From Schmidtea polychroa (Eukaryota): a DNA stretch of 64,000 nt. Positions 39,500-63,342 of this stretch are shown here, one piece after another (the first letter of the stretch is position 1; the number at the start of each line of letters is the position of its first letter). A program made the position numbers and the translations under genes. The stretch covers positions 12,650,001 to 12,714,000 of the forward strand of contig CM097885.1 of NCBI GenBank assembly GCA_044892525.1, written 5' to 3'. Under the pieces are notes generated by a model. The model saw nothing but the letters and a program-made list of their open reading frames with translations. It did not search any database and was not told where the DNA came from.

Positions 39500-40975
39500 A
39501 TCTCACGTAGAAAATTTTCGCTTATAACAGATCTAATTTGGAAATGGTGTAAAATAAATATTTTATTATTGGTAGATAAATGTTGCCAAAATTGCATTTA
39601 TTTCATATTTTGTTAAAAGAAAAATATTTATTAAAAAATTTAAAAAAAATTGAATAAATATAAAAATAAATCAATACAAAGAAAACATTTATTTTGAACA
39701 AGTGACAAACATAAAGAAATGTAAAACGAAAGCGTTCAAATATTTGATAAACTCAGTGAAAATGAGAGAATATGTGACTCTAACAAAACGTTTTGATGTT
39801 GAAATGTTTATTGTTTCTATGGATATTGTTGTTGGGAATGTTATGAAGATTTCAAGGAACTCCTAAAGGTCGATTGGCCATTCAGAAAATCTGTCATTTA
39901 TATATTTTACATTTGCTAATTCTGTTTCAACTTGCCGAATTTCATTGGCGCATTTCGCCATTTCAAGCTGCAACTGAATCTCAAATTCAAACATTTCAAA
40001 TAATCAATAAATCACCTTTTCATTCTCCTGTTGCAGCCGCTGCTCGCATTTCTCTTTCATCTCATCAATTTGCTGTTGACATTTTGATTCAATCACATCA
40101 ATTTGCTGTCTGACCTGCTTTGCATCAATAATAAATCAATAACAAATCAAATCAATATACAAACTTGATTGATTGATCCAATATTTGTATCCATCTCCAT
40201 TCTCAATGAGCGATTCTCATTCTTCAATGCCACCATTTCCTCATTCAATTCTTCTATTTCTTCTCTGTTCTCCGCCTCTTTCCTTTCAACATTGCACAAT
40301 TTCACCTACAATCACAAAATATCAATAAAATTAATTACAAATAAAAATTACATGGATATAATCAAATTGTTGTTTGAATTGCGTCATTTCTCCTTTCAAT
40401 TCGGTAATTTCGTTATGCAATCTCACATTCTCATCTCTCATTGATTGCATTCCATTGCATAAATTACTGATGTGATCGATCAATAATTTGCTATGGGCTT
40501 CATTGTTCTCATTGAGATGGACTTTCATTTCGTCCTTATCCACCTCATTCGTTTCGCATCCAATTCTATTGAACGGACATCTGATTGGTTGCTTGTTGCA
40601 TGTTCTCATGTGGCTCTCCATCATGCACAACTCGGTTTTCAATTCACAATTTTGCATTGGGCATTTTACAATAACTTCAGATATTTTTAAATTGGCTACA
40701 TGATCCACAGAAACATCATTAGTGAAAAGAATCGTTTGAACTTGACAATATTTTGCTGCTCCTGGACAGAATTTATCTTTTCCATCCAAATAATGTTCAA
40801 TGCAATCAGAACAAAAGCGACAACCGCAAGGAGCTTGGCAAGCTTTTATCATTAAACATTTGCAGATTTTGCATATCAATTCACTGCTGATTTCATTATC
40901 AAATTCAAATTTATTTCTCTTCATTATTTCCCATACATTTGCAAACATTTTATCTAAAATTAACAAAATTATCAA
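39500..40975 (-). pseudogene. Host-type TRAF-like gene (RING, TRAF zinc finger, coiled coil); downstream exons appear degenerate
   Basis: LICKICKCLMIKACQAPCGCRFCSDC, VKCPMQNC, HMRTC..QPIRCPFNRIGC in ORF 40331..40975; GT-AG introns and coiled-coil exons follow; no intact MATH found; 3' boundary approximate. Confidence 0.7.
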
Positions 40976-42399: not shown

Positions 42400-43646
42400 C
42401 GATGCCAGCTTCTAGAGCTTTGATTACGAATCGAATGATTTACAAATACTTTTGTTTCAATGTTAAATATTTGAGGTGAAAGCTGCAAACCAAAAAAATC
42501 AATATATTTGATCAATATCAATATTTCAACTTTATTGATCATGTAGACAATTTATTTAATTTCGAATATTTATTAAATACTGATTTTAGAGTGTAAAATT
42601 GAACCATCAATATTTCTAGATCTGGATTGCTTTGATTGTTGGCAAATTGAATATACTGATTAATCAATATTTCCTATAAAACATATTTAATCATGTTGCG
42701 GGGCCCGAAATCTGTCGAGTTAATCATTTGTAAATTACAAAAATTGCAGATCGATAATCAAATGACCAGCACGAATCAACAAAGAATTGATTATATTCAC
42801 ATTAGGAAATTAGGACATTTTAGCACTTGATTGCACACTTGTGCACTCAAAATATTCAACTAAAATTCAATTTTACATGTAAACATCATTTTTTCACTAT
42901 TTCACTTTAATCAATATATTTATAATTGATAAATATAAATAATAATAGCATTTTGTCTAAAAGTCATGGTGGACTGCCATCATATTTCCAGCTTCTATGG
43001 CTTTGATTACGAATCGAATCTATCTACAAATTGTTTTGTCTATATGTTAATTATTTGAGGTGAAAAAGCTGCAAACCAAAAAAATCAATATATTTGATTA
43101 ATATCAATATTTCAACTTGATTATATAGATAATTTCATTTGATTTTAAATATTTATTAAATACTGATTTTTGAGTGCAAAATTAAACCATCAATATTTCT
43201 AGATAATTATTATACCATCTTGACAGGCAATTTATTACGAGTGTAACGATATGGAGATTATTTATCTGGATGGCTTTGATTGTTGGCAAATTGAATATAC
43301 TGATTAATCAATATTTCCTGTAAAACATTTATTCGTGTTGCGGGGCCCATATCTTATAGTCAAATGTTGTATAGTTGGTAGGAAATCTGTAGAGTAGATC
43401 ATTTTTAAATTACGAAAATTGCAGATCGATAATCAAATGCCCAACACGAATCAACAAAGAATTGATTATATTCGCATTAGGAAATATTTTTGGACATTTT
43501 AGCACTTGATTGCACACTTGGCCACTCAAAATATTCAACTAAAATTCAATATTACATGTAAACATCATTTTTACACTATTTCACTTTAATCAATATATTT
43601 ATAATTGATAAATATAAATAATAGCATTTTGTCACAAAGTCATAAT
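42400..43646. repeat. Tandem duplication of a ~600-bp unit
   Basis: CCAGCTTCTA..GCTTTGATTACGAATCGAAT at ~42405 and ~42988, with colinear similarity thereafter. Confidence 0.9.
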
Positions 43647-44470
43647 AGTAGTGTGTATATATACCCAACCAACACAACCCTCCCAACTAAAACATACCTC
43701 CATTATGCTTAAACCATTAGAAAAACAACATAAAACCTATACTTTTATAGTATTTTAACCCCATATTTTAAACAACAACCACCCTTAATCTTTAAAGCCT
43801 CAAACTCAAAAGCTTCAAACTAAAAAGAGAATAGAAAAGAAAATGGCATTATGAAAAAGTTAGAGGGCTATTTGATCTTTATCAGATTATTGAATTTAAA
43901 TTATATAAATTAAAAAATAAATGAAAAATAGTAAAACTGCTCTGAGGAGACAGTGGTATTTTTATTTTTTTTTTCACTGTCCCCTCAACAGTTTTTTTTG
44001 ATCCGGATCATTTTTTTATTTATCAACCTCTTTCGTTTATCGAATCTCTTCCAATATACAAGCTGGCCAGACTCATACATCAGAATCAATCCGATAATAG
44101 CAGCACACCTTATTATTCGCTTCTCGCTCGAATACGATTTCATCGGCGTTTTAAGTGTGCTGCTCGAAAGTACAAATGAATTCGAAAGTGAATCCGAAAG
44201 AGGTCCGAAAACAACTGAGAAATAAATGTGCACATTAAAGAATCGATCCGGGGGTGTTCGAAAGACAGGTGGCGATAATTACCGGTTCGCCACCATCACC
44301 CGTTTCAATAATTTTTTTTTCATATTTATGTTTAAAAAATAAAATAATTAATAAAATAAATAAAATAAAATAAAAATAAATAAAATATACAACTACTTTA
44401 TAAATCTAAGATACCCACACTATTATTTTCAAATTTTTAATATTATTTTATGTTGAAAAAAAAACTAACC
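43647..44470 (+). repeat. Left TIR of Polinton B
   Basis: Near-identical reverse complement of ~57748-58567. Confidence 0.95.
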
Positions 44471-44539
44471 TCAGATGTGATTTGAACCGCTAGCATTTTG
44501 AACCACTGTGCCAGTCTATTCCCATTGCGCCATCAAGGT
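44468..44539 (-). ncRNA. tRNA-like Pol III unit (left)
   Basis: A box TGGCGCAATGG at position 8, B box GGTTCAAATC, followed by a T-run. Confidence 0.6.
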
Positions 44540-44643
44540 TTGAATTTTTGTCATTTTTTAAATTTTTATTATAAAAAATGAATAATATAAATCTTAAAAA
44601 ATAAAATGAAAACAGGGTATCCAATAAAAAATTTTTTCTAAAA

Positions 44644-47600
44644 ATGAATTGTAATATTTGCAATAAAGTTTTTAAAAATAAAACTGGATTAATTTCTCAC
44701 TTAAAATCGAAAGCTCATTTATTAAAAGAAAATAATCTTAATGATACAAATTCAAAACTTTGTCTTAAATGTAAAGGAAGATTTCTACATTCTGGATATA
44801 ATAAACATTTTGAAAATTGTATCGGGAAAAATAGAGAAATATTTACATGTCCTCATTGTAACTTTTCAACAAAACTAAATTTCTATTATTTAGAACATAT
44901 AAAAGAATGTAAAAATAAAAAACAAAATTCTGACGATGAGGAATGTCATTCAGAAGGAGAACCTGATCATGTTGAAAGAGAAAAATATAACTGGGATAAT
45001 TTTAATCATATAAATGAATTTCAATTAAAAATTAATGGGCCTGCAACTCCTGGAGAATATATAAATAAAAATAAAAAAAATATTAAAAATTCTTTCACTG
45101 AAGCTTTTAAAAATTATAAACCGACAAGGTATAATGTTATAAAATATAAAATTATAATCAAAGCAAAATACTGGCGAGGAGCAGAAGAAAAGACAACACC
45201 CTTAGATGTTGAAATTGGAATACCTTTTAAATATTTATTTTCAATTAAAGGATTTGATAAAACCATCAAAGAAATAATTAAAGCAGCAGAAGCAAAACAA
45301 GAGGAAGTAGAAAATGAATTAGGAGATTCAAACTTAGTATTCAACTCTTTCCAAACTTTAGTGATTGATTATTGGAGAGGATTACCACCCAATCCTAAAT
45401 CTTATATTCCTACACCCTTTAAATCTAAAAATGTTATAAATGTACAGAATAATGATAACAAATGTTTCATCTGGTCAATACTTGCACATTTACATCCTCA
45501 AGCAACAAATCCCCAAAGAGTTTCAAAATACAAACAATATGAAAATGAATTAATATTTCCCAAAGGATTCAAACACCCAATGAAACTAGAAGACATTCCA
45601 GAATTTGAAAAATTAAATAATCTTAAACTTAATATTTATGAACATGTTATAGGGAAAGAAATTATTCCAATTTATATTTCAGATAGTGGAACCAAGGATA
45701 ACGGAGCACAGGACAACGAGATATATCTTTTAATCTTGGAACAAGAAAATAATCAACATTATGTTTTAATAAAAAACTTTCAAGCTTTTACATCTCCAGA
45801 GAATCCAACTAGTGGAGGAGGAACATGTAAAAGATGTCTTCATTATTCAACAACTAAAAACTCTATGATTAAACATACAAGATTTTGTGAAAAAGATGAA
45901 CCAGCTTTAATTAAAATGCCTAATAATCCCAAGATGTATTTTAAAAACTTTTCAAATTTACTACAAACAGTTGGAGTTCTTTATGGTGACTTTGAATCTA
46001 TAAACCATAAACAAGATTTGGTTTATCAATATTTAAAAATAATAGAAAAAAATAAACTCATGGATTTATGGAACTCCTCAGGAGAGAAGATGAAACCAGA
46101 GAGGATGAAAGCCTTTCTAAGAAAAAGGAATAAACCTAATAGTGTTAAAAAAACTAAACAATTACCATCTGCTTATAAATTATTATTAAAAAGTAATTAT
46201 CCTGAACTCATAGAATCTAGAGAATATTCAATTCTAGGAGGTACCCCTGAAGAAGTCTTGAATCATTTTACTAAAAATATAAATGATCTAGAACATGAAA
46301 TATTTAAAATATTAAAAACAAAGTATCCTCAAAATATTTCTAATCAACAACAACAAGAATATGAAAATACTTCCAACTGTTGGATGTGTAAACAGAATAT
46401 TCTTCCTGATGAAAAAGTTATAGATCATGATCATTTAAAAAAGGAAAATAATTATCGAGGAGCAGCTCATAAAAATTGCAATCTTAATTGCCATACTCCT
46501 AAATTTATACCTGTTATATTTCATAATCTTTTTGGATATGACATACATCTATTTATTAAACATTTAGCAGCAAATGCTAAAAACTCTTTCAAAGTTATCG
46601 GCTTAACAAAGGAAAAATATAAATCAGTTGAATATGGAAAATTAAAATTTATAGACTCGTTAAACTTTCTTCAAATGTCTCTAGATGGAATAGCTAAAAC
46701 AATGAAACCAGAAGATTTTAAAATCAATCGAGAATTCTTGGAAAAAAATAATATTCCTCTAGAAGAATATCCTACATGTTTAGCAAAAGGAATATATCCT
46801 TATGACTATGTTGACTCGTTTGAAAGATATAATGAAACAAGTCTTCCTAACAAAGAAGATTTCTTTTCAAACTTACTACAATCAGGGATTACAGATCAAG
46901 AATATTCTCGAGCATTAAAAATGTGGGAATTATTCAAGTGTAAAACTTTAGGAGAATATACCAACATGTATTTATCCTTAGATGTTTATATTCTAGCAGA
47001 TTGCTTTGAAGAATTTACAAACTCTTTTGTTCTTAAACCTTATAATTATATAACTGCACCCTCTTTAGCTTGGGATACTATGTTATATACCATTTGGACT
47101 TCAAATATAGAAGATGCTGATAAAATTATAGATCTTTAAACTAAGCTCGATATGTTTAACCAAATTAAAACAAACATTAGAGGAGGAGTCTCTTCAGTAA
47201 TGGGGAATAGAGAAATAAAAGCTAGAAATGCAATAACTACTAGCCGAAGACTCTCTAAACACCCTGATGATCCATATATGAAAATTAACAATGAGGAATT
47301 AAAAGAATTATTAGAAACAATGAAAAATCCTATATTTATACTTTATATAGATGCAACAGCTTTATATTCAGGAATTATGACTCAATATTTACCAATGAGT
47401 GATTTCACTGAAATAGAGAACCCAACAGATGACCTTATGAAAGAAATACTTTCAACATCGAAAGATTCTCCAATAGGTTACTTTATAGAATGTGACCTCG
47501 ACTATCCAGATGATATAAAATCAGGAACAAGATATTTTCCTTTAGCTCCCATAAGAAGAAAGATTGATATCAACGAACTTTCTGAATGGCAAATCTCACA

Positions 47601-48924
47601 AGATAAACCTCCAACAATGAAACTTCTTTGTGATCAAACAGATCGAAGGTTTTATCTTTGTCACTATAGACTCCTCCAATTTTATCTCTCACGAGGAATG
47701 ATATTAAAAAAAGTTCATAGTGTCATAAGATTTAAACAAGCTCCATTCATGAAAGCTTTTATCGAGGAGAACATTAGGTGCCGAAACATTGCAAAAAGAG
47801 AAGGTAATCTTTTTAAAGATAATAATTATAAACTTTTAAACAATTCAGTCTTTGGGAAAACAATGGAGAATGTTGATAAATATACTCATATTGAACTCCT
47901 AACAAATACTACCAAAGATATTAAGCGTTATAATCGTATGCTAGGAAAGCCCACATTTAAAAACGCACAAGTATTTTATGAAAGTCTTACTGCAGTAGAA
48001 CTAAAGAATTTTGAGAAAACATATAATAAACCAATATTTATAGGGTTTTCAATTTTAGAACTTTCAAAATTACAAATGTATGAAACATATTATAACATCT
48101 TACAACCTATATACGGAGCAAATATATCAATGCATGCAATGGATACAGATTCAATGTTTTTAACCATAAGAACTCATGATTTACAAAGTGATATAGCTGA
48201 AAATCCTATACTTTCAAATTTAATAAATTCATCTGGAGAACTTTTTTCATTTAAAGATGAAAAACCAAATACTCCTATAGAAAATGGAATATTTATTCGT
48301 GCTAAACAATATTCATACGAAACATTTACAAATCCTGAATTTATAACTAGATCATTTATATTTAAAACTCCAGAAACAGAATAAACCATTTCACATAGAT
48401 ATCCTATATTTCCTAAAGAAGAAAAACCCGTAAAGGATAACAGATGTAAAGGAATACAGAAATCAGTTGCAAAGAATCTTTCTCATCAAGATTATATAGA
48501 TACATTGAATCCAAATCATAAAGATAAAATTGATGAAATACATCAACTTAAAAGTGAAAACCATGATATTCACTTGATAGAATCTCAAAAAGTATCATTA
48601 TCAAATTATGATGATAAGAGATTCATACTAAGTGATTTAAAGACAACTCTACCTATTGGAAATAATTTAATCCCTATAATAAAAAATCTAGAAAAGTTGA
48701 ATAAGTTATATGATACAAAGATTACTGATCTTGATATTTATAATGTTGAAATTATTTATCCCGAGAGAGAAATCGAGAAACCTTTATATTCTCAAGTTTT
48801 TAATCCTATATGTTTAGAACTTAAATATTTTAATACTGATCCTGAATATATAAAAGGTCTAAGTGATAAAGAATTTAAAGATCATAAATTAATGATTCAT
48901 AGGTTGGCTTTCAACCATAACTGA
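44644..48924 (+). pseudogene. Polinton pPolB with N-terminal zinc fingers; two in-frame TAA stops (47137, 48382)
   Basis: CNIC...HLKSKAH, YGDFES, DHDH, FHNLFGYD, KGIYPY, YIDATALY, NNSVFGKT, DTDS, DDKR; three ORFs in one frame. Confidence 0.96.
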
Positions 48925-49027
48925 AACCAACGATATTTAATAATAAAATGTCGACAATTAATTTAAGCAACTATAGCAACCTGATCTACTTTTTTAAAAA
49001 TACACCCATTTTATAAGTAAGAATTCT

Positions 49028-49606
49028 TTAACCATTTTTCTCGAGATCTTTTTTATTACTTATAACATTAGCCACCATGCCCTCCCTTTTTAATCTTATA
49101 ACCTCATTCTTTATATCTTGTATTATTTGATTTGATTTCATTATTTCTTCGTCTGTCAGGATTCCATCTTCCAAAGCTTTTAATTGAAATAAAAATAATT
49201 TAGAGATTCCTAATTCTATTGATAAACAAACTTCTCTATATAAACTTTTCTTTTTAGAAGTATAAGATAATGAAACTATTTCAGTTAAGAAACCATCAGC
49301 CACAGAAATACTTCCAAGTATTACAGGTGCAAGAGTAACAACTGGTAAAGTTATGGGTAAAATAACTGTTAATATTGCAGATGCAAATCCTAAAGAATAA
49401 CCTATAACTTTTAAAACTGTATTCCCTTTATTCCATCTATTTTTAATTTTTTTATAATGCTTTAATAAATCTTGTAAATGTAAGGTTTCTGATTTAAATT
49501 CTTTTACTCTCATAATTTCAAGTTCTGTGGGAGCCGAGGCCTTGGAAGAATAATATCCTGATGATCTCAATTCTGGGTAAATTTTTTCTTCTCTTACTTC
49601 TTCCAT
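49028..49606 (-). CDS. Polinton membrane protein
   Basis: 192 aa with hydrophobic hairpin VIGYSLGFASAILTVILPITLPVVTLAPVILG. Confidence 0.7.
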   Translation of the reverse strand: MEEVREEKIYPELRSSGYYSSKASAPTELEIMRVKEFKSETLHLQDLLKHYKKIKNRWNKGNTVLKVIGYSLGFASAILTVILPITLPVVTLAPVILGSISVADGFLTEIVSLSYTSKKKSLYREVCLSIELGISKLFLFQLKALEDGILTDEEIMKSNQIIQDIKNEVIRLKREGMVANVISNKKDLEKNG

Positions 49607-49614
49607 TTTAATAA

Positions 49615-50624
49615 TTAAAAAAATAAGACTTTATTCTTCTGAGCACCATCTGGCACCAATACTCGGATATCAAAAGAAACTCTTGTTGAGAGGATATCTT
49701 TATACAATTCTCTCAATGCTTTACGAACTTCATCAACATCAACCTTTTTTTCATAAAATATTAAATCTATATATTGTACAAGTGAACTAGAAAAATGAAT
49801 ATTCTTACTTTTAACTTTATGTAGTCCATGTGAATGAGTATTAACATACCAATCTCCGTGTGGTAAATCATAACTAGTCATTATAACATCACCCTTTTCA
49901 AGCTTACTATTATAATCACATTTCACAAACCATTTCATTCTTTCATTATCATCATCAAACAAAAAGAAATAACGATCAATAATTTTTACAACCATAAAAA
50001 CACCCCATTCTTTACTGTTTGTTGTTATTAAACTTGGTTCTATAAAATGTTTATATGTATGGGGTAATAATGTTTTATTCTGTTCTAATTCAGCAGCTCT
50101 TTTTCTAATACTATGTGTGGTGTTAATGTGTGTTCCATGAGACTCTAAATTTGAAATTCTTTTATTAAATGATGTAATCATCTCATTTATTATATTATAT
50201 ATTGCATTAAATTTAGTATTCATAATTTGTTTATCTTTAGAATTTAATATAGCAGTATTTAACTTTACAACTTGTTCAGTTAACAGACTTTGTAACTTGT
50301 CAAATTTATCATTAAATCGTTGTTCGATATTATTAAGCTTTGATTCCATTGAATCAATTTTGTTGTTAATGAACTTTCAATTCTTGTTGTTGTTAAATCA
50401 GTATATTTTTTAACACCATCTACATATTTCTTATTAACTGCATCAGCTTCATCAGTTGGAAAAGATAATTCTTTTATCTTGTGTCCATTTAAAATTAAAT
50501 CACCCTTCATTGAATCACCTCTTTCATTAATATATTTATTTTCTGTTAAAGTTAATATTTCTTCTGTATTAAACCCTGTTTTTATTGTTCCACCACCTCT
50601 ATTACATGGAATATAAGAACTCAT
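49615..50624 (-). pseudogene. Putative fiber-like protein, split by a 1-nt frameshift near 50360
   Basis: YINERGDSMKGDL.LNGHKIKEL..PT...DAVNKKYVD fiber-type motif, then coiled coil, IRKR site and globular C-terminus. Confidence 0.6.
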
Positions 50625-50648
50625 TTATTAATAATTTAAAATGAATCT

Positions 50649-51413
50649 TCAAACCTGTTTCAAATGTAAATACATTGAAATCTCTTCTCCATTAAAATCA
50701 ATCAATTCTCCTTCTTGATTAAGAATTTTAAAATTAATATCCATTATATATTTTCTACATAAAGGTAAATAATTTGGAGGATTCATTCTTTCAACTATTT
50801 TATATCCCATAGGAACTGTGTTTGAGGGAAAGGAATATAAAACATTTGTTTGTTTACCATTATTATAAGAACCTGTTATACAATCGCAATGAATATTTAT
50901 TGTGTTTGTATTTATTATTTTTATAATATGTTCTGATGTTATTATTTTATCTTCTTTTATTGTTATATCCATATGTTTAAATCCTAAAACTGTGTGAAAG
51001 AAACAATTATCTAAAAAACTAATTTTTATATTCTTCAAAGTCATTACACATTTTGAAGTTGGTATATCCGTTTTAATTTTAATACCTTCATTTGTTTTTT
51101 TAGAAAGTATATCATTTAAATCTTTTATCTCATATGCCCCAGGTTCTATTGTTATAATTTCTGGTTTATGCCCATCACGAGTTTGAATAGTAAATTTATT
51201 ATTATCTTTAGTTATATTAAAAATAGTATTATAAGCACAAAACCATAATAGCCCCAATTCATAATTTAAATTTTGATCTAATTTAATTGAATCTTGAAAG
51301 TTTATAGTAAACTCTGATTCTTTTGAATTTATAGATAAAGTTCTTGAATATTTATCTGACATTATGTTTACCATTTTTTTTAAATTATTTTCCGGAGGGT
51401 TGTGAAGCTCCAT
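50649..51413 (-). CDS. Polinton minor capsid (penton-like) protein
   Basis: YNTIFNIT..NNKF, IEPGAYEIKDLN, NIHCDCITGSY, YLPL, NQEGELIDFNGE...LHLK. Confidence 0.85.
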   Translation of the reverse strand: MELHNPPENNLKKMVNIMSDKYSRTLSINSKESEFTINFQDSIKLDQNLNYELGLLWFCAYNTIFNITKDNNKFTIQTRDGHKPEIITIEPGAYEIKDLNDILSKKTNEGIKIKTDIPTSKCVMTLKNIKISFLDNCFFHTVLGFKHMDITIKEDKIITSEHIIKIINTNTINIHCDCITGSYNNGKQTNVLYSFPSNTVPMGYKIVERMNPPNYLPLCRKYIMDINFKILNQEGELIDFNGEEISMYLHLKQV

Positions 51414-51461
51414 TTCTTTAGTAGTAAATTCATATAGTAAAAATCCTTATAGTAAAAATCC

Positions 51462-52776
51462 TTATAGTAGAGATTCTAGATTATTATAAATTTCTTGAAT
51501 TATAGATTCAAAATCCTGCGTATGCCCCTTTCCCTCTCCCTTATTCAATCTATACAAAACATATAAACTTAAAATACCACATATTTTAGTATTCAAAGGT
51601 TTGAACTTGTAAAGAGTTAAAAGTATAACCATTTGGGGAATCAATCGGAGAACCCCTCAAGAGATAATCTTCAACTTCTTTAGTAGGTTTAATCCCAAAA
51701 GAATCAAAGTAGATAGATTTCTTATATATACAAACCCAATGAGATCCTTTTTCATTTAAATTTTGATAATTGATTATTATATTCAGGGGACTCTCCAGAC
51801 TTGATAATTCATCATTCATTAATATTTTAATTTTTAAATTTAAATAATTTGCATAATCTTTTAAATCAAAATTTGTTTTTGTATTTATTCCAAATGTTTT
51901 TAAAAAATCTAAATTAAATTTATCTTTTGAAATTATTCCTTGTTTTAACAAATCTTTAGAAATCTTTAAAATATCAGAATCTAAATTATTATGTCCTGCT
52001 TTCCTTGCAGCTAATAGTTTTCTTAATTCAATAAAAAGATTGATGGGATTTGGTTTACCACCTTCACTAATTAATCCCTCTCCCTCTGTAACAACATAAC
52101 CCTTTTCATTTTTATCTAAATAATTCTTTAAATCTTGAATATATTTTGCTTTAGAACTAGCTCTTATTAATCTTATTAAATTTAAATATTTTTTAATTTC
52201 TTCAACATCATCTGAAGAATATCCACAAAGTAATCTATAAAAATCATCTGTAAATTCAAAGTCTAAATATTCATTATTATAAACATTTTGTGAATGAATA
52301 CGTGATTTATTTTCTGAATTTGAATATAAAGTAAAGTTTTGTTTATTAATTGTTATTATTTGATATCCTTCAGTATTAGTATTAAATGTGGGTCTAATTG
52401 AAGGAGGTAAATCATCTCTAATTTTAGGATCAACTTTAAGAGGTTTTGTTTTTAAAAACATTTCTTCTTCTTCCACATTAGAAATTCTTCTGCGTTTTCT
52501 TTGATTTCTTTCAGGATGGTTTTCACTGGATTCTTTTTCTTTATCCTGCCACTCTAGTTCTTTTATTTTTTGTTTTTTATCTTCTAACTCTTTCAATTTT
52601 GCTTGCTCATTGAAATCTTCCAACTCTTTTATAGCTTTAATTGTTGGCCCCTGTTGTTGTGTTATTACCTCATTTAATATTATAGATTCAGCATGTTGAG
52701 TTGTATCTTTTTTATTATATTTATCTTGTTCTGATTGTAATTTTTTTAATAGTGCTAATCTTTCTTCATATACCAT
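51462..52776 (-). pseudogene. Adenain-type protease with long N-terminal extension; frameshift near 51600 separates the catalytic Cys
   Basis: IINY...KGSHWVC, YFDSFG, QVQ; KICG in the shifted frame (ORF 51462..51644). Confidence 0.85.
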
Positions 52777-52798
52777 TTTAATGGTATCAAAAATGGTA

Positions 52799-53368
52799 TC
52801 ATAGTTCGAAGGGCTTCAAGTATAATCCTTTACCATTTTTAGTTTTACAAAGGCATCCATTCTTTAAAGATTTACATATTTTTTTTAAATCTTCTTTATC
52901 TTTTGAAGATAAAGATTCAGATGTAGATTTTTGATTTTTTAAAAAATCATTTAAACCTCTACCTTTATAAGGATCAAGATAGAGACCTTTGCCCTGAGAC
53001 TTTTGCCGACTCCTCTCATATGGATTAAGATAGAGACCCTTTCCAACGGACACTCCCCCTTTAGCTTGCCCTACCTTCTTCATTGAATCGATTTCAGTTT
53101 GTAGTTTTTCTTTTTCTAGGTGTGTCTTTTGAGATTCTTTAGCTTTTTGAACTGTAGTTGCAATTCCTCCAGCTATTCCAGCAGCACCTGATAGTCCGGC
53201 AATGATTGCAGGTATTAAAGCAGCTAATGGAAGAATGCCACCTTCTTTAATCTTCGATCTAACTTGTTCTTTTACATGTTTTCCAATAAAATATTTTTTA
53301 CCATCAATTACTACTGATTTATTTTTATTTGAATTTATTAATTCTTGCAAAGATTCTTCAGTTGTCAT
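52799..53368 (-). CDS. Basic virion-precursor-like protein with hydrophobic helix and repeated GKGLYLxP
   Basis: KEGG followed by ILPLAALIPAIIAGL; three GKGLYL(N/D/K)P repeats. Confidence 0.75.
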   Translation of the reverse strand: MTTEESLQELINSNKNKSVVIDGKKYFIGKHVKEQVRSKIKEGGILPLAALIPAIIAGLSGAAGIAGGIATTVQKAKESQKTHLEKEKLQTEIDSMKKVGQAKGGVSVGKGLYLNPYERSRQKSQGKGLYLDPYKGRGLNDFLKNQKSTSESLSSKDKEDLKKICKSLKNGCLCKTKNGKGLYLKPFEL

Positions 53369-54175
53369 TTTATAATAAACAAAATGGATATTTGGAAACC
53401 AATTTTAAATAGACATAAGAGTAAATTTAATAATAAAGTATTTCCTGATAATTTTAGATTATTAATTGTTGGTTCTTCTGGATGTGGAAAGAATGTACTT
53501 GTTTTGAGAATGTTACTTGAAGATGATTTTTTAGATTATAATAATTTAATCTTTTATTCTACAACCATAAATCAACCAGAATTACAACTTTTGAAATGTG
53601 GATTTGAAAATAAATTAACTAAAAAAGCAATAATTGATATTTTTAAAAATCAACATAGGTGTCCTGAAGAAGTTTTTCAACCTTGTGATATGGTTGATTG
53701 GTATAAGGAAAAGATTTTAGAATCAGATATTAGTAATAAAAATGATTATATTTGTGAAGAAGGGCAGGAGGCAATTCAAGTTTTATTCTCTAATAAACCT
53801 GAAGATGTTTTACATTGTGATTTACTTCCTAAAGATAAAAAGAATCTAGTTATATTTGATGATGTTGTTAATATGAAAAATCAAGAGATTCAAAAGAGTT
53901 ACTTTACACGAGGTCGACATAATAATTGTAATGTTATTTATATATCTCAAACATATTATGCTTTAGATAAAAATTCAATAAGAAATAATTCCAATTGTTT
54001 TATATTTTTTAAATTAGATCGCCGTGATAAGAATATGATTTATAATGATTTATTTTCAAATGTTGAACCTGATAAGAATATGTTTGATATGTTTGTTGAT
54101 AATCATTGGAAAGAAAAATATAATTATATTTATTTGGATAGAGAAGAAGCTGAAATATGGAAAAGTTTGTTTTAG
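53345..54175 (+). CDS. Packaging ATPase (A32/FtsK-like); likely ATG at 53384
   Basis: Walker A GSSGCGKN, Walker B LVIFDD, RGRH, YISQ, IRNN. Confidence 0.93.
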   Translation: MQRFFSCHFIINKMDIWKPILNRHKSKFNNKVFPDNFRLLIVGSSGCGKNVLVLRMLLEDDFLDYNNLIFYSTTINQPELQLLKCGFENKLTKKAIIDIFKNQHRCPEEVFQPCDMVDWYKEKILESDISNKNDYICEEGQEAIQVLFSNKPEDVLHCDLLPKDKKNLVIFDDVVNMKNQEIQKSYFTRGRHNNCNVIYISQTYYALDKNSIRNNSNCFIFFKLDRRDKNMIYNDLFSNVEPDKNMFDMFVDNHWKEKYNYIYLDREEAEIWKSLF

Positions 54176-54186
54176 GGCTTGTCGAC

Positions 54187-55590
54187 TTAAAAATCTGTTT
54201 TCTGTAGTTCATTATTATAAAATCTACCTAATATTTTTTCATTATTTAAATCAAAGATGCTATATGTTATTGGAGTTGTATAATGTATTTTATTTATAAT
54301 AAAAATTTCATTTGTCCATTTTGCTGTGAATCCTTTTTCAAATTTATTTTTATATTTAAATATTCTTACTCGGTCACCAATTTTAAACTTTGGTTTTTCA
54401 ATAACATCATTTTCAATATTTACCACTTTAATGGTTTCAGGCTTCATGGAAGCATTTAAAGGTGTTAATTTTATAGAACTATGTACATCATTATTATATT
54501 CATTTACAATCTTTTGTAACAATTCATTGTTCCATTTTTGTTTTCCAATAGCAGTAAAATATTTCCACATTTTATTTTTTAATGTTCTATTTAATCTTTC
54601 AACTACGACTGCTTTTCCTTCGTTTTCTGTTGAATATAATTTAATATCATTTTCATTTAAAAACTTTGTAAAAACTTTGTTATAAAATTCTGTTCCTTTA
54701 TCACACCATAAATATTTTGGGATTCTTTGATTTTCTTCAAATATATTTTCAAATGCTTCTCTAATAGAATATCCTGTTTTATTTTCTAAACATCTTGCAA
54801 AAGCAAATCTTGTATATAAATCTATTACAGTTAAAATTATTTTATATTTTTCAGGGTCTGATGATTTGGGCATAAAGACTAAATCTGCAGACCATGTTTG
54901 ATCTTTTTCATGTACTTGAACTTTTAAATATTTATTATTTTTTCTAAATTCATGGTGTAATTCCTTTGCATATTTTATTTCTGATTCTGTTGGGGTTTGT
55001 AAACTAGTCTTGGCTGTACTCTCGAGGGATCTTTCAATCTCTGCTTGTTCGATAATCTTTTTATAAGCAACATCTTTTGCTTTCCTAGGAAGTCTTGCAC
55101 CCATGGTGATCGGACTGTGTCCTAAGCCTATGAAAATCTTACCTTTCATTGCTAATTTAACTAGAGCTCTTTGAATCTTTTCTTGGGTTGATGGATTTTG
55201 GATACTATTTAAATCATGTATTAAATTCACATCTGCAACATGTCTATCTCTAAGATTTGTTGAATTGTATGCAATGTCATGTTTTAAAGCTGCTTGATCA
55301 ATTCTATTTATTGGTTCTTCTCCTTGTTTGGGATTATTATTTTCATCTAATCTAATATCTAGACTTGTTCCTGGTCCGGTATAGTTGTGTTTAAATAAAT
55401 GTCTTTCACCTGGATATTTTTCTGTAGTAAAAGGTTTTAATATTGAAGATGTTGTTTTTGAAGATTGTAGGTCGCCTCCGGCTCGTGGAATCATGTCGCC
55501 TCCGATATGTTTTTTAGTTTTTAGATGACTTGCTTTATGATGTCTTGTAACTTGACAATTACAACTTTCACTTCTCCAATAGAGAGACAT
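54187..55590 (-). CDS. Retroviral-like integrase with N-terminal parvovirus-type phospholipase A2 domain
   Basis: HNYTGPGT...NRIDQAALKHDIAY; WSADL, CDKGTEF, ERLNRTLK, KFKIGDRVRI. Confidence 0.92.
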   Translation of the reverse strand: MSLYWRSESCNCQVTRHHKASHLKTKKHIGGDMIPRAGGDLQSSKTTSSILKPFTTEKYPGERHLFKHNYTGPGTSLDIRLDENNNPKQGEEPINRIDQAALKHDIAYNSTNLRDRHVADVNLIHDLNSIQNPSTQEKIQRALVKLAMKGKIFIGLGHSPITMGARLPRKAKDVAYKKIIEQAEIERSLESTAKTSLQTPTESEIKYAKELHHEFRKNNKYLKVQVHEKDQTWSADLVFMPKSSDPEKYKIILTVIDLYTRFAFARCLENKTGYSIREAFENIFEENQRIPKYLWCDKGTEFYNKVFTKFLNENDIKLYSTENEGKAVVVERLNRTLKNKMWKYFTAIGKQKWNNELLQKIVNEYNNDVHSSIKLTPLNASMKPETIKVVNIENDVIEKPKFKIGDRVRIFKYKNKFEKGFTAKWTNEIFIINKIHYTTPITYSIFDLNNEKILGRFYNNELQKTDF

Positions 55591-55607
55591 TTTAAAATGT
55601 TAAAATA

Positions 55608-56894
55608 TTAAGAATCTCCCCTAACATTTTCGATTATTGAAATCTTTCCACCATATAATTTCATTTCTATTTTCTTTTCTTCTAATATTAATGTATATAC
55701 TTTAGCTTTAAAATTAGAATCCTTTGTTATATGAAGTGTAATATCAACATTATTTATGGCTAGGCGATCATCTTGGTCTGAAACATTTATACAAAATATA
55801 GAATATAAATTTTTGAAATCTTCTAAACTTAATTGCGGTTCAACTTTGAAATCATAACATGTTTCAATATAATTTAGATATGGGAATATGTTTTCATTAT
55901 TTTCAATATTAAATTCCATTCTATTTATTGGATAATAAGAACTATTTAATTGAATTTGGATTGTTTTTAAATTATCAACTCCAATCTTTTGAATAAACAA
56001 GTTGTTATTTTTTTGGAAAGATTAATCTACTTCTTTGAATCCAATCAAGATATATCTTGGTCGGTATGCTAAATTTGCTACCTTTATAGAATATGTTGAA
56101 CCCTCTGTCATACTAAATTCACTACAGATTCTATTTAAATAATTTACATTTATAGACTTGTTGGAATTTAATCTTTCAAGGAGTTTGATTTCAGAATGTG
56201 GATTTAATGTCCATTCAGGTATATGCCATTCAAGTGTTGATATTTTTAATTTAGCTGTTGTATCCTTATCTCCATAGAACAATCTTTTATCACCTTCTAC
56301 TCTATTACAAACTAATTCTATAAAAACATTATGAAGTATACGATTATAGTTTTGAAGGAATCCAAACAAGTGTTTTAATTCAAAATAACCTTCAAATTTT
56401 TTAGATTTATAAAGTTCAGCTCTTTTATAGTAACCATAATTTATATCTAAACCATCTTTATCTAAATCTCCTTTATTAACATCAGGAATCCAGCCTGTTA
56501 ATTCACCATATTCGTTTTTATAATCACAACCAGTTAAAATAAAATTTAACATTGTAGAATATACTCCTGGATGTAAAACAGTTTCAATTTCTGATGATCC
56601 TAGTTTTAATCTCATATTGGAGAATAAATTTGGAAAGAAATTATTTTCTAGGGTTATATCTTTGTTTGCTTCAATTTCTAATTCGATTTTATAATATAAT
56701 TTGGCATTACAAATATCTATAGGGTTTGATGTTTGAAGAGATTGAAAAACTATATCACCCCTACGATTTAAGTTTGCAATAGATCCTGAAGTTGGGGAGA
56801 TTTTAAGTACATCGTTTTTCTTGATTTCATGAGTAAATTCTTTATTATAATCAAGATTTAATTTATTTTTTTCTTGAATTTTTATATTATTCAT
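55608..56894 (-). pseudogene. Polinton major capsid protein, in-frame TAA at 56022
   Basis: NNFFPNLFSNMRLKLG, LKHLFGFL, RPRYILIGF, LNSSYYP, IFCINVS; two ORFs in one frame (~428 aa). Confidence 0.82.
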
Positions 56895-56950
56895 TTTTAT
56901 ATATTAAAATTTACACACACAAAATAGGATTAAATAAATATATTATGTAA

Positions 56951-57032
56951 GCCATTATAGCGGAGTGGGAATAGGCTTCAATTTTATCACCGGGAGTACC
57001 GGGTTCAATTTTCGATTTTGGTCAATTTTTTT
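56951..57032 (+). ncRNA. tRNA-like Pol III unit 1
   Basis: A box TAGCGGAGTGG at position 8, B-box-like GGTTCAATT, T7 terminator. Confidence 0.55.
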
Positions 57033-57195
57033 CGATATTTTTTTTTTCAACGGAATCTGATTCAGCGTACTGATTTTAGTATTTATTTAAATTTTCAGAT
57101 GGATCTGAGTGGTAGTTGTCGAGAAAATGAATAATTAATTATTAATTTCATCAAAAAATAGTCACACATTAACAACTTATTTTATATTGAGTATA

Positions 57196-57276
57196 GCTCT
57201 AATAGCTTAGTGGTAATATCACTCGACTGCATTGCCAATACCAATGGGTTCAAAGCCCATTTCGGTCATTTTTTTT
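57196..57276 (+). ncRNA. tRNA-like Pol III unit 2
   Basis: A box TAGCTTAGTGG at position 8, perfect T-arm AATGGG-TTCAAAG-CCCATT, T8 terminator; GACTGCA resembles a tRNA-Cys anticodon loop. Confidence 0.65.
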
Positions 57277-57431
57277 CAAATTTTTTTAACGAAATATTGA
57301 TCAGCATACTCGATTTAGTACTTGTACAAATTTTTAAGGTGATTGGTCAACGGCAACTCTTGGAAATTTAAGATCAAAAACGTTTTAACTACCAAAAATT
57401 AATATATCCAATAAAAAAAATATTTATAAAA

Positions 57432-57701
57432 ATGGATGAGTTAAAAGAAAGAATGAGAAATGAATTGAATGAAGTTAAACATAAGAGAATGAAAAGAAGA
57501 GAAGAAGAACCATTAGAATACATCAAAGAGTTGATGGTAGATAATGAAAAGTATCGACATTTTTATATGAAGGCTGTAGATGTTGCTGATATAAGATTGA
57601 AGAAAATGAAACAATTACAGGAAAGAGTTAAAGAACTTGAATCGATTATTTATAGTCTAAAAAATAACAAAAATCCAAACCTAGATAGCGCAGTGGGCTA
57701 G
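57432..57701 (+). CDS. Small coiled-coil protein
   Basis: 89-aa ORF with AAAATG context, E/K/R-rich helix. Confidence 0.6.
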   Translation: MDELKERMRNELNEVKHKRMKRREEEPLEYIKELMVDNEKYRHFYMKAVDVADIRLKKMKQLQERVKELESIIYSLKNNKNPNLDSAVG

Positions 57702-57760
57702 ACCGGCACCGTGGTTCAAATGGATAGCGGTTCAAATCCTAACTGTGGTTAGTTTTTTTT
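57679..57760 (+). ncRNA. tRNA-like Pol III unit 3
   Basis: A box TAGCGCAGTGG, B box GGTTCAAATCC, T8 terminator; diverged mirror of 44468-44539. Confidence 0.6.
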
Positions 57761-58567
57761 CAACATAAAATAATATTAAAAATTTGAAAATAATAGTGTG
57801 GGTATCTTAGATTTATAAAGTAGTTGTATATTTTATTTATTTTTATTTTATTTTATTTATTTTATTAATTATTTTATTTTTTAAACATAAATATGAAAAA
57901 AAAATTATTGAAACGGGTGATGGTGGCGAACCGGTAATTATCGCCACCTGTCTTTCGAACACCCCCGGATCGATTCTTTAATGTGCACATTTATTTCTCA
58001 GTTGTTTTCGGACCTCTTTCGGATTCACTTTCGAATTCATTTGTACTTTCGAGCAGCACGCTTAAAACGCCGATGAAATCGTATTCGAGCGAGAAGCGAA
58101 TAATAAGGTGTGCTGCTATTATCGGATTGATTCTGATGTATGAGTCTGGCCAGCTTGTATATTGGAAGAGATTCGATAAACGAAAGAGGTTGATAAATAA
58201 AAAAATGATCCGGATCAAAAAAAACTGTTGAGGGGACAGTGAAAAAAAAAATAAATACCACTGTCCCCTCAGAGCAGTTTTACTATTTTTCATTTATTTT
58301 TTAATTTATATAATTTAAAATCAATAATCTGATAAAGATCAAATAGCCCTCTAACTTTTTCATAATGCCATTTTCTTTTCTATTCTCTTTTTAGTTTGAA
58401 GCTTTTGAGTTTGAGGCTTTAAAGATTAATGGTGGTTGTTGTTTAAAATATGGGGTTAAAATACTATAAAAGTATAGGTTTTATGTTGTTTTTCTAATGG
58501 TTTAAGCATAATGGAGGTATGTTTTAGTTGGGAGGGTTGTGTTGGTTGGGTATATATACACACTACT
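57748..58567 (-). repeat. Right TIR of Polinton B
   Basis: Reverse complement of the left TIR. Confidence 0.95.
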
Positions 58568-58814
58568 CATAATGGACTGCTAGTAGATTTCTAGTAGACT
58601 TCAAAAATGCAAAAAATGTTTTGACATTAAATTTATTACAATATGAATATTTAAACACAAAAATCATTTATTATTGTGAACTGTGGAACCCATTTACCTC
58701 CAAGTTAACATTTTGACAAATATTTTTTGATTTTAATTATTACAGATTAAATTAAGTACCACAAATAGAGGATAAAATTTACAATTAAAATCAAATAGTA
58801 ATTTTAATTTGAAA

Positions 58815-60944: not shown

Positions 60945-61690
60945 GTCAAGGAAAAACGAATTTGAATATGTTGATTGCTGGAAATATATCAAAAAATGAA
61001 TCATGAAGCTGCTAATTGTAAAGCTTGTCCTAAGCCCATCTCATGCCAAGGGTCATCCACAGCTGGTTTGCATCGGCATTTGGAGCATGCACATTCAATG
61101 AGACCCATACAAAATGCAGCAATATTTATCCAAATGTAAAACATAGCAAAAGCAGAAACATCAATTTCAGTTGAAAAGTTTTTTTAAGTTCAACGGCCAA
61201 TTGTTAATGAAATCGTTTCTAAATGATCCGCTAAAGGCGGTCTGGCCATATCAGGCAAATATGTAGCAGTGATTTCATACGGAATGGCTTAAACATTCGG
61301 ATTTACTTTATCAAAGCAGCCTAGAGATGTAATGAAACTGATATTCGGCTGCTGCTGCGGTGAAATCAAAGGAAATATAATTAAGAATATTAAAAAAGGC
61401 AGCTAGAAACCCAAAAAGTTAGTTTATCGATTGCTGAATGGGCCAGTTCAAATATTTGCATGCGTATTACAGTGTTACTGATTCTTATAATTTGGGGCTG
61501 GTTAGAATGCATGGCAGCCGCCCCGCAGCGATTTTAATCACTTTTGTTGAAGGCAAGCTTAAATGTTTTGGATTTAGTTGCGATAAAGATATTGTGGCGA
61601 TTACGAGTGACGGAGCCAGCGCAATGTTATTATTTGGTCGATTGTCACCAGCCGCTCATCAGCTGTGCTGCAGCCATGCTATTTGGCATT
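60945..61690 (+). pseudogene. hAT transposase remnant (BED finger and catalytic core)
   Basis: ANCKAC...SSTAGLHRHLEHAH; NLGLVRM.GS, AITSDGASAM, QLCCSHAI; many stops and frameshifts. Confidence 0.85.
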
Positions 61691-62170
61691 TGGCATTTGG
61701 CATTGGCATTTGGCAGCTGGCATTTGGCATTGGCATTTGGCATTGGGCATTGGCATTTGCATTCGCCATTGGCATTTGGCATTGGCATTTGGCATTGGCA
61801 TTTGGCATTTGGCATTGGCATTTGCATTTGGCATTGGCATTTGGCATTGACATTTGGCATTTGGCATTGGCATTGGCATTGGGCATTTGGCATTGGGCAT
61901 TGGGCAGCTGGCATTTGGCAGCTGGCATTTGGCAGCTGGCATTTGGCAGCTGGCATTTGGCAGCTGGCATTTGGCAGCTGGCATTTGGCATTGGGCATTT
62001 GGCAGCTGGCATTTGGCATTGGGCATTGGCATTTGGCATTTGGCATTGGCATTGGTATTGGTATTGGCATTTGGCATTGGCATTTGGCATTGGCATTTGG
62101 CAATGGCATTTGGCATTTGGCATTTGGCATTGGCATTTGCATTTGGCATTTGGCATTGGCATTTGGCATT
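61683..62170. repeat. (TGGCAT/TGGCATT/TGGCAGC)n simple repeat
   Basis: Direct reading. Confidence 0.95.
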
Positions 62171-63342
62171 CCTTAACAGTACTGCCGTATAATATTTCTG
62201 ATGGGTTCTGGAAGGCCGAAAGGAGGTCTTATGTCGGATGTATTCCTTAATAATTTATGGTCATATGAACACTTTGGTAACGAGTGATAACACACAAAAA
62301 CAGATTCGCCTTTGTGCCTTCTTTCCATATTTTGCATATGGCTTGATGTTTGACTTACTGTGATTAAACTCTGATGAAGATCTGATTCAATAACATAAAA
62401 AAGGAAAAGAAACAACATTATTATTTATTATAAGGAGATAACTAATGGTACATTATTTCATAAAATGGTGACGATCACAAGAGGAGGTATCTCCTAATTC
62501 ACATGATCACAAGTTTGATTTTTCCTTTGGAACTTCTCCTGAGGTAGTTCCAGAACGGGCGTGCGCAGATCAATAGTTGTCGCCAGGAGCTGAACTCCAA
62601 AATATGTTCAGATGACCAGTGTTGTCGATGTTGTACAGCATAAGAGAGCAGATGAAGCGAGTAGAGTTACTTCTGAAGCCTTAAAATTATTAGCAACAAC
62701 ATTATCTGGGCAACTATCGAGAAATTTCGCAATATCGAAATCTGTGAAAATTTGAGCGTCATGATATCACTTGCGATTTCACAACTGAATTTAGAAGAAT
62801 TAAAATTTTTTAAAATAGCCAAATAAAAAAAGATGTGTTTAAAATTATCTAGTTTTTGAAAAAAGATTTCCAATAATATTTATTATTTTAATACCACATA
62901 ATAACAACAACAACAACAAAAACATAAATAATAATTTTATTTTAAATAATTTTCAGTTCATAAGAATTATTAATTTATTACAAAATTTCTCTATACACAA
63001 TATTGCGCGTGAATATATGATTGTATATATAGTATAATAATAATAATAATAATAATTATTCATTTAAGTTACTAATAACAATTAATAGATAAATTTATTA
63101 AAATATAACTGAAAAATATATTGAGCGCCACAGAATCAGTGAGTGAGTGAGCGATTGAATGACCTGGACCTTTATAACATATATATTTAAAATTTATTGT
63201 TGATAAAATTATACTATTTACGGTAAATATAAATTATATATAAATACAATAAAGTCTATATAGATGCGTCCTAAGAGTACAAATTGGTATTATTAAAGAA
63301 AGGATTCGAAAAGAGACTAACAATTTCAATAAAACAGATATA

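Follow-up and report, generated by a model that had tools for sequence, protein, structure and literature searches.

The window analyzed here, a 64,000-nt stretch of the 781-Mb genome of the animal Schmidtea polychroa (all coordinates are window positions), contains a complete copy of a Polinton (Maverick), and this copy carries four short units with the anatomy of tRNA-derived genes for RNA polymerase III (Pol III). The units descend from tRNA genes, reside in the element, occur in well over a thousand copies in the genome, and have promoter boxes that are better conserved than the rest of the unit. This pattern suggests that the element uses the units. The reading that we favor, tentatively and with confidence that falls a little short of even, is that captured tRNA genes of one Polinton lineage have been kept as cis-acting, tRNA-type promoter modules for Pol III and transcription factor IIIC (TFIIIC), with a boundary-like role.

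Four tRNA-derived units in a Polinton

The four units are the following (T7, T8, and T9 denote runs of seven, eight, and nine T):

56951-57032, plus strand: U1, a degenerate tRNA-derived unit; A box 56958-56968, GGTTCAA 57002-57008, T7 57026-57032
57196-57276, plus strand: U2, a pseudo-tRNA with anticodon loop GCA; A box 57203-57213, B box 57247-57257, T8 57269-57276
57679-57760, plus strand: U3, at the inner edge of the right terminal inverted repeat (TIR), facing outward; A box 57686-57696, B-like box 57713-57723, canonical B box 57729-57739, T8 57753-57760
44456-44539, minus strand: U4, a U3-type unit at the left end, facing outward; A box TGGCGCAATGG and B box GGTTCAAATCA, with one mismatch each; T9 44456-44464

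An earlier interpretation of the same DNA, made from the letters alone (the sequence-only reading), had placed three units at 56951, 57196, and 57679, each with an A box at unit position 8, a GGTTCAA B box/T-arm, and a T7-T8 terminator. All three units were found at these places, with matches to the A-box pattern TRGCNNAGTGG at 56958, 57203, and 57686 and with T-runs of seven, eight, and eight T. The description of the B box holds for U2 and U3, which match the fuller pattern GGTTCRANNCC, and holds in part for U1, which has GGTTCAA followed by TTTT. The A-box pattern has four matches in the window versus 0.23 expected, a number reached in 0 of 100 shuffles, and all four matches lie within units; the fourth, at 44503-44513 on the minus strand, lies in U4, which was absent from the earlier list of three. 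The B-box pattern has two matches in the window, in U2 (57247) and U3 (57729), versus 0.34 expected. The A box is exact in U1, U2, and U3 and has one mismatch in U4. Exact B boxes are found in U2 and U3; that of U4 has one mismatch, and that of U1 is reduced to GGTTCAA.

Spacing is canonical in all four units: the A-to-B offset is 43-44 nt, and the T-run lies 66-68 nt past the start of the A box and begins 1-2 nt past the tRNA-sized body. The units accordingly have the sequence anatomy of a type 2 Pol III gene, with an A box near +8, a B box near +52, and a run of at least four T directly downstream. U3 and U4 each occupy the inner edge of a TIR, and U4 is the mirror of U3, being 85% complementary to 57699-57760, just inside the near-perfect outer repeats. 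U3 has, in addition, a second GGTTCAAAT box (57713-57723), which stands at a non-canonical position 16 nt ahead of the canonical B box and which, in many copies, is fused to an A-box-like TGGCACAGTGG.

The units descend from tRNA genes and, as the sequence-only reading had held, are not functional tRNAs. ARAGORN found 0 tRNA genes in the window, and no Rfam match in the window reached the gathering score, which is 29 bits for the tRNA model RF00005. Under permissive Rfam settings, U2 scores 17.7 bits against this cut-off, the low-scoring pseudo-tRNA match that had been expected, and the alignment to the model marks non-canonical pairs in the acceptor stem and in the anticodon stem, both of which had been described as poor. 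For U1, U3, and U4 in the window, and likewise for U1 and the U3 type in sister copies, the Rfam tRNA model gave no match at E<=10. Sister copies of U2, scanned in 17 loci, score 32.4 bits in three loci (L053, L066, and L074), 28.7 bits in L057, and 25.1 bits in L059; their D arm contains AATAGCAC and their T arm GGTTCAAATCCC, and GCA stands at the anticodon position in the model alignment. The window U2 is a mutated copy, with two extra mutations relative to its sisters. Because sister copies exceed the tRNA cut-off, we conclude that U2 originated from a tRNA gene.

Two further relationships connect the units. U1 and the U3 type both contain TAGCGNAGTGGGAATAGNC and, for this reason, are paralogues. 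U1 and U2 had been proposed to represent a ~245-bp duplication with similar downstream flanks, and the tandem duplication is real, including ~100 nt past the T-run: the two units align well in the A box, in the GGGTTCAA core, and in the ATTT-GGTCA-T-run end, poorly between these parts, and moderately over the ~100 nt downstream. A canonical Cys-type tRNA pattern had no match in the genome. Among the loci fetched, the host tRNAs found by ARAGORN were Lys-TTT and Arg-TCG only, and tandem arrays of host tRNAs were noted at ~76.66 Mb of G000 C4 (period 424 bp) and on contigs C140, C333, and C474 (period 278 bp on C474).

Copies of the units are numerous, and those sampled lie in the element. Among 2453 first-look candidates for an 841-bp region, at least 40 are copies with 97-99% identity. 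The U3-type pattern has 1003 exact matches in the genome versus 0 for a reversed control, and the first 100 of these 1003 matches include 11 outward-facing minus/plus pairs 12.9-14.0 kb apart versus one inward-facing pair; outward-facing pairs at this distance therefore match one unit per element end. The start of the module that contains U1 and U2 has 1364 matches in the genome (control: 0). The first 100 of the 1364 comprise 98 with the same junction as the window, 2 with another junction, which matches a Polinton-internal type D context seen in L057, and 0 elsewhere. Since the sampled copies all lie in Polinton ends or junctions (6 of 6 U3-type matches with flanks fetched, and 100 of 100 listed module starts), the units belong to the element and not to a dispersed short interspersed nuclear element (SINE) of the host.

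We therefore regard as barely credible the alternative that the units are a tRNA-derived SINE, or a miniature inverted-repeat transposable element, of the host that inserted secondarily in the element. Such an origin would be in keeping with the form of the U1-U2 module, a discrete 489-bp insertion with a 6-bp direct repeat that occurs in two different contexts, and with the very large number of first-look candidates for the tRNA model in the genome (112,431, a rough figure). Against it stand the confinement of the listed module starts to two junctions, the residence of the sampled U3-type matches in Polinton ends, and the position of the terminator, which directly follows the tRNA-sized part and leaves the units without a SINE body or tail. 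The likeness to tRNA-derived SINEs is that of a decayed tRNA head that has kept its A and B boxes, which in SINEs are kept for transcription; the difference is that a SINE continues into a body and a tail and propagates independently, whereas the units end at the terminator and were found only inside Polintons.

Box conservation and layout across subfamilies

The sequence-only reading had claimed that the promoter boxes are better conserved than the rest. For U3-type units, segments were chosen by homology and not by motif: a BLAST search with 57640-57960 against 55 loci and the left end of the window gave 51 matches, from which four that did not span 57672-57850 (including L085) were dropped, and addition of the window gave 48 segments. 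Majority fractions were computed over 38 clusters at 96% identity, and shared and singleton variants were counted over 39 distinct copies. The majority fractions are:

A box: 0.976
Extra B-like box: 0.971
Canonical B box: 0.967
T-run: 0.997, the best-kept part
5' acceptor part: 0.805
Part between the boxes: 0.853
3' tail: 0.868

Invariant columns make up 33 of 41 in the boxes versus 16 of 41 in the rest of the unit (Fisher p=2.5e-4). Variants present in at least two distinct copies affect 5 of 41 box columns versus 22 of 41 non-box columns (p=1.2e-4). Box and non-box columns contain singletons equally often, at 0.12 versus 0.15 per column; these variants probably represent neutral decay after insertion. 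In the divergent copy L085, with a TIR that is ~74% identical, the A and B boxes are both exact and T7 is kept, while the 21 nt between are unrelated. The 3' tail exists as two alleles, a CCTAACTGTGG type and a CACATCTGAGG type, which occur in several combinations with 5' parts. We conclude that boxes are kept better than the rest in U3-type units across subfamilies.

The layout of the units was compared in 30 capsid-gene loci, window included, which represent modular subfamilies. At least one unit is present in 18 of the 30. In the simplest right ends (L061, L063, L068, L069, L070, L073, and L077), a conserved AT-rich spacer of 37 nt adjoins the capsid ATG, and next come an outward-facing U3-type unit, T8, and the outer repeat; some of these ends have two U3-type units in tandem, 235-245 bp apart. 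The left end of the window repeats this simple layout, with the ATG of a mini open reading frame (ORF) in the place of the capsid ATG, such that, in simple right ends and in the left end alike, 37-38 nt separate the U3-type unit from the first ATG. In the window subfamily, two insertions are present at one point of the right end, the U1-U2 module and a small-ORF module (57432-57701). The features concerned are:

44578-44604, plus strand: ATG-led mini-ORF of eight codons (MNNINLKK) followed by a stop, which mirrors the start of the capsid gene (MNNI...) and lies 38 nt from U4
56912-57400, plus strand: U1-U2 module, an insertion of 489 bp that simpler subfamilies lack, bounded by the direct repeat AAAATT at 56906-56911 and 57395-57400
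57432-57701, plus strand: 89-aa small ORF, located between U2 and U3, with a protein sequence that is conserved in other subfamilies

The mini-ORF region and the capsid-start region (arms 44559-44610 and 56862-56913) are 79% complementary. The small ORF encodes a lysine/glutamate-rich product of 84-89 aa, matches no Pfam family, and is kept across diverged subfamilies (the window; L062, at 3255-3509; L058; L067; L078), with the variants MDELKERMRNE, MTDLIERMRN, and MNDIIKRMRNE; in the window copy, its final codons overlap the start of U3.

The 12 loci without units are of several kinds. Six (L051, L052, L056, L064, L065, and L072) form a separate lineage with a different end, in which an imperfect ~22-bp palindrome, TAGCA...GCGC...TGCTA, adjoins the capsid ATG and is followed by terminus-like sequence; in L051, the palindrome and the terminus-like sequence form a ~213-nt fold-back. 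Three (L071, L075, and L076) have other inserts, two (L078 and L079) have the small ORF only, and in one (L060) the flank reads N. A reading in terms of a 7SL head was dropped, since neither the element's repeat nor the unit-less lineage gave any match in Rfam. Beyond the genome, 12 metagenome loci with capsid relatives (33-52% identity) yielded no tRNA, no tRNA-model match, and no A-box-like motif in 31 kb, most of the contigs being short enough that they may miss element ends, and a search of viral contigs for relatives found none. The units are not a general feature of Polintons. One metagenome contig with a capsid relative, L088, has at 3810-3889 on the minus strand, ~2 kb upstream of the capsid gene, a hairpin that scores 48.6 bits against the mir-754 precursor model (E=4e-7; gathering score 84).

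According to the reading that we favor, one Polinton (Maverick/adintovirus-like) lineage would have captured tRNA genes, and selection in active lineages would have kept the A box, the B box, their spacing, and the terminator as the rest of the RNA drifted. The ancestral layout would have been symmetric, with one outward-facing unit at each end between the outer TIR and the first gene (capsid at the right, polymerase at the left), 37-38 nt from the ATG; the window subfamily would later have gained the 489-bp U1-U2 module and the small-ORF module at its right end. The units would act in cis, as DNA, by binding TFIIIC and probably also TFIIIB and Pol III; bound units would hold a nucleosome-free, boundary-like patch; this patch would shield the promoters of the terminal genes from silencing that spreads from repeats or flanks; and the RNAs, being short, unstructured, and U-tailed, would be incidental products. 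A role in cis as DNA is favored over a trans-acting RNA because the boxes are kept, the rest drifts, and the units are mirrored at both repeat/gene junctions.

The sequence-only reading had also put forward the idea of TFIIIC-dependent barriers. The part of this idea that stands is its fit to the anatomy, which is better than that of the alternative analogy to adenovirus virus-associated (VA) RNAs, in that outward-facing units with conserved B boxes stand at both repeat/gene junctions, the motif and position expected for a barrier of this type; the barrier effect itself is proposed from position and conservation. The stronger proposal, that the lineage's promoter-only Pol III/TFIIIC modules, mirrored and outward-facing, may act at the two repeat/gene junctions as portable chromatin boundaries or as open-chromatin anchors for neighboring promoters, is one that we consider possible, albeit doubtful. 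If correct, it could help explain the well over a thousand copies of this lineage, which would be the first virus-like DNA transposon to carry its own tDNA-type (tRNA-gene-type) insulators.

Several observations weigh against a boundary-like role in cis. A McDonald-Kreitman (MK)-style two-by-two comparison (shared/singleton by box/non-box) does not reach significance (p=0.11). Conservation about as good as that of the boxes is seen in the initial 40 nt of the outer TIR and in the upstream flank of 21 nt, with shared variants in 4 of 40 and 5 of 21 columns; because they too are conserved, the box contrast comes partly from unusually variable non-box positions, the variability of which is possibly due to shuffling of two paralogous alleles between ends. 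The second GGTTCAAAT box is conserved as well as the canonical B box, a finding not predicted by a model based on Pol III alone. Because the copies used in the comparison are related to one another, the columns are independent, but few events underlie them. As set out above, units are absent from 12 of 30 capsid-gene loci of the same genome (one of which reads N) and were not seen in the 12 distant metagenome relatives (most contigs being short). Finally, Pol III transcription of the units, binding of TFIIIC or other factors, and any barrier effect are what we infer from sequence.

The non-significant MK-style comparison also speaks for a first alternative, in which the units are neutral relics, once-working tRNA genes in decay; the boxes, initially under the strongest constraint, would then look conserved for want of time to change. 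The U2 of sister copies is still at the tRNA threshold, units have been gained and lost between subfamilies, and tRNA genes occur in related groups, being reported in polinton-like virus (PLV) and virophage genomes (PMC12220804) and flagged in some related viruses (PMC8502044). However, the U3 type is far from any tRNA, with no Rfam match at E<=10, yet has exact A and B boxes and a T-run in copies with repeats that are only 74-85% identical, as stems and middle change; and shared variants avoid the boxes, in contrast to singletons, which fall equally inside and outside them. We consider neutral decay an unlikely account, but one that deserves serious weight.

The conservation of the flanking 21 nt and of the first 40 nt of the repeat speaks also for a second alternative, in which the boxes serve another machine, as sites for Pol II factors of the capsid and polymerase genes or as a cis element for replication, packaging, or integration at the repeat boundary, and in which the tRNA likeness is ancestry. 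With only 37-38 nt between a unit and the first ATG at each of the two terminal genes, the promoters of these genes must overlap the units. Moreover, GGTTCAAAT is present twice in direct orientation, 16 nt apart, with conservation of both copies, and one is off the canonical B-box position. This alternative nevertheless appears quite improbable to us, although it too deserves weight: A box, B box, and T-run occur with exact tRNA-gene spacing in three diverged types of unit, including U1 and U2, which lie away from the repeat boundary, and the best-kept part of all, the T-run (0.997), would be left unexplained.

The host element and its surroundings

The element and its principal parts, with the evidence for each, are:

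43647-58567, no strand assigned: complete Polinton/Maverick copy of 14,921 bp (TIRs, flanks, Pfam genes)
43647-44463, no strand assigned: left outer TIR (arm complementarity)
57753-58567, no strand assigned: right outer TIR (arm complementarity)
44644-48384, plus strand: region of protein-primed DNA polymerase B (pPolB), in two ORFs (Pfam PF03175)
54187-55590, minus strand: rve integrase with an N-terminal PLA2-like domain (Pfam)
55608-56894, minus strand: major capsid protein gene (double jelly roll), with its start at 56894 and an in-frame stop in this copy (Pfam)

The hallmarks of a Polinton/Maverick are present together: pPolB, an rve integrase, an A32-type packaging ATPase (its gene identified within the element by Pfam), a double-jelly-roll capsid gene, TIRs, and a 6-bp target-site duplication, CATAAT, read in both flanks (43641-43646 and 58568-58573). 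The TIR arms are 100% complementary over 503 nt (43961-44463 and 57753-58255) and 98% complementary over 326 nt (43647-43972 and 58242-58567). The window copy is decayed, with an in-frame TAA within the capsid gene; in the sister copy L062, the capsid gene is intact and encodes 428 aa. The N-terminus of the integrase is a parvovirus-type PLA2-like domain (PF08398, E=1.7e-9 in Pfam); in the adintovirus paper, PLA2-like genes form a separate class of virion genes (PMC8502044).

Within the right TIR, 57923-58273 and its mirror at the left are richer in GC and have a summed contig depth in the thousands versus 5-13 over U1-U2, in two runs that are only guessed to be RNA, the comparison being made from contigs, which cannot rank expression. 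None of the sequencing runs found to contain the stretch is on record as RNA, and contigs of four runs, the two guessed ones among them, were compared with it. The same TIR contains a strong hairpin around an A-run at 58225-58273.

Other mobile elements lie elsewhere in the window. A 2795-aa open frame at 3-8390 (plus strand) encodes a Monjiviricetes-type viral fusion glycoprotein domain (E=2e-72) together with protease, reverse transcriptase, RNase H, and integrase, and has the appearance of a retroelement that captured an envelope-type gene, fused in frame. Two further pPolB fragments and a DDE_1 transposase (22401-23795, minus; 33083-33763, plus; 31097-32116, plus), located in the AT-rich central part of the window and without an A-box match, are remnants of other Polintons and of a DNA transposon. 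Near mobile elements, RING plus TRAF/MATH-type proteins are encoded at 11837-13225 (plus) and 40331-40948 (minus). A tandem array of 13-14-bp units (TTGGCAT, GGGCAT, and GCAGCTGGCAT types) at 61640-62190 has open frames on both strands.

Relation to viral Pol III genes and chromatin barriers

Polintons stand between transposons and viruses, and their gene control and their escape from host silencing are poorly understood. The present case provides a concrete, testable hypothesis, namely that decayed tRNA genes, mirrored beside both terminal genes, are kept for their Pol III boxes. The units link Polintons to viral Pol III genes, namely VA RNAs, Epstein-Barr virus-encoded RNAs (EBERs), and tRNA-miRNA-encoded RNAs (TMERs), and to tDNA chromatin barriers; and the family, with well over 1,000 unit copies, could add thousands of TFIIIC-type sites to the host genome. 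The kinds of system to which the units would belong, virus-borne tRNA-derived Pol III units and tDNA-type boundary elements, are already known; in the literature collection searched, nothing was found on tRNA-like Pol III units in Polintons or adintoviruses.

VA RNAs are ~160 nt long and highly base-paired, and adenoviruses are distantly related to Polintons. The sequence-only reading had proposed the units as possible VA-RNA analogues, and this analogy fails because of length, fold, and conservation. VA RNA I and II resemble the units in having internal A and B boxes and a T-run. In contrast to VA RNAs, the RNAs predicted from the units are ~75 nt long, match Rfam only weakly, as tRNA, and fold no better than shuffles: for the four units in the window, fold z-scores versus shuffles are +0.27, -1.41, -0.13, and -1.38. 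The mean z-scores over distinct copies are +0.71 for U1 (8 copies), -1.70 for U2 (16 copies), and 0.00 for the U3 type (33 copies). The alifold structure of the U3 type has eight pairs, with no compensatory change on both sides of any pair, and the non-box sequence drifts or is replaced.

These results bear equally on the broader possibility that ~75-nt Pol III transcripts act in trans on the host as small viral RNAs, like VA RNAs, the EBERs of Epstein-Barr virus, or the TMERs of murine gammaherpesvirus 68 (MHV68), or that they yield tRNA-fragment-like RNAs. The geometry of the units is that of a complete Pol III gene, each element carries several units, unit copies in the genome number well over a thousand, and viral tRNA-like Pol III RNAs exist (PMC8223928, PMC4337559). 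The possibility is nonetheless improbable in our view: a stable or conserved fold and compensatory changes are lacking, the non-box sequence is the least conserved part and is replaceable, no Rfam family matches beyond the weak tRNA match, and the T-run directly follows the tRNA-sized body, which leaves no room for TMER-style hairpins.

The nearest viral parallel, by analogy, is with the tRNA-like Pol III genes of MHV68. In TMERs, the tRNA-like part folds and is separated from the terminator by pre-miRNA hairpins. In the units, by contrast, the T-run comes immediately after the tRNA-sized body and a fold could not be detected, and host and virus group are unrelated. The likeness extends to several properties: TMERs, or viral tRNAs (vtRNAs), are virus-borne and tRNA-derived, have internal A/B-box Pol III promoters, are present in several copies clustered near a genome end, and are not working tRNAs (PMC8223928, PMC4337559).

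Genes for tRNAs also occur in the wider Polinton-like group. In one survey, 558 tRNA genes are reported from ~8300 PLV and virophage genomes and are discussed in terms of codon compensation (PMC12220804); a second source flags predicted tRNA genes in some related midsize double-stranded DNA viruses, with no mention of VA RNA in the part available (PMC8502044). The tRNAs of this wider group are predicted to work, whereas here only the U2 of sister copies is at the tRNA threshold, the other units are promoter-only shells, their positions are fixed and mirrored, and the element is an animal Polinton.

The closest chromatin parallel to the role that we tentatively propose is provided by tDNA barriers and extra-TFIIIC (ETC) sites. 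Two sources describe tDNA barriers that depend on Pol III, together with boundary sites of TFIIIC (PMC2040200, PMC3395662); a third describes effects of Pol III complexes on neighboring Pol II genes (PMC4228148). As in the tRNA genes that flank fission-yeast centromere 1, the units place tRNA-type boxes at the border between a repeat and a unique center, on both sides (PMC2040200, PMC3395662). In tDNA/ETC barriers, the activity has been shown by experiment and concerns a chromosome domain; in the units, a corresponding activity is suggested by position and conservation and would concern a mobile, virus-like element.

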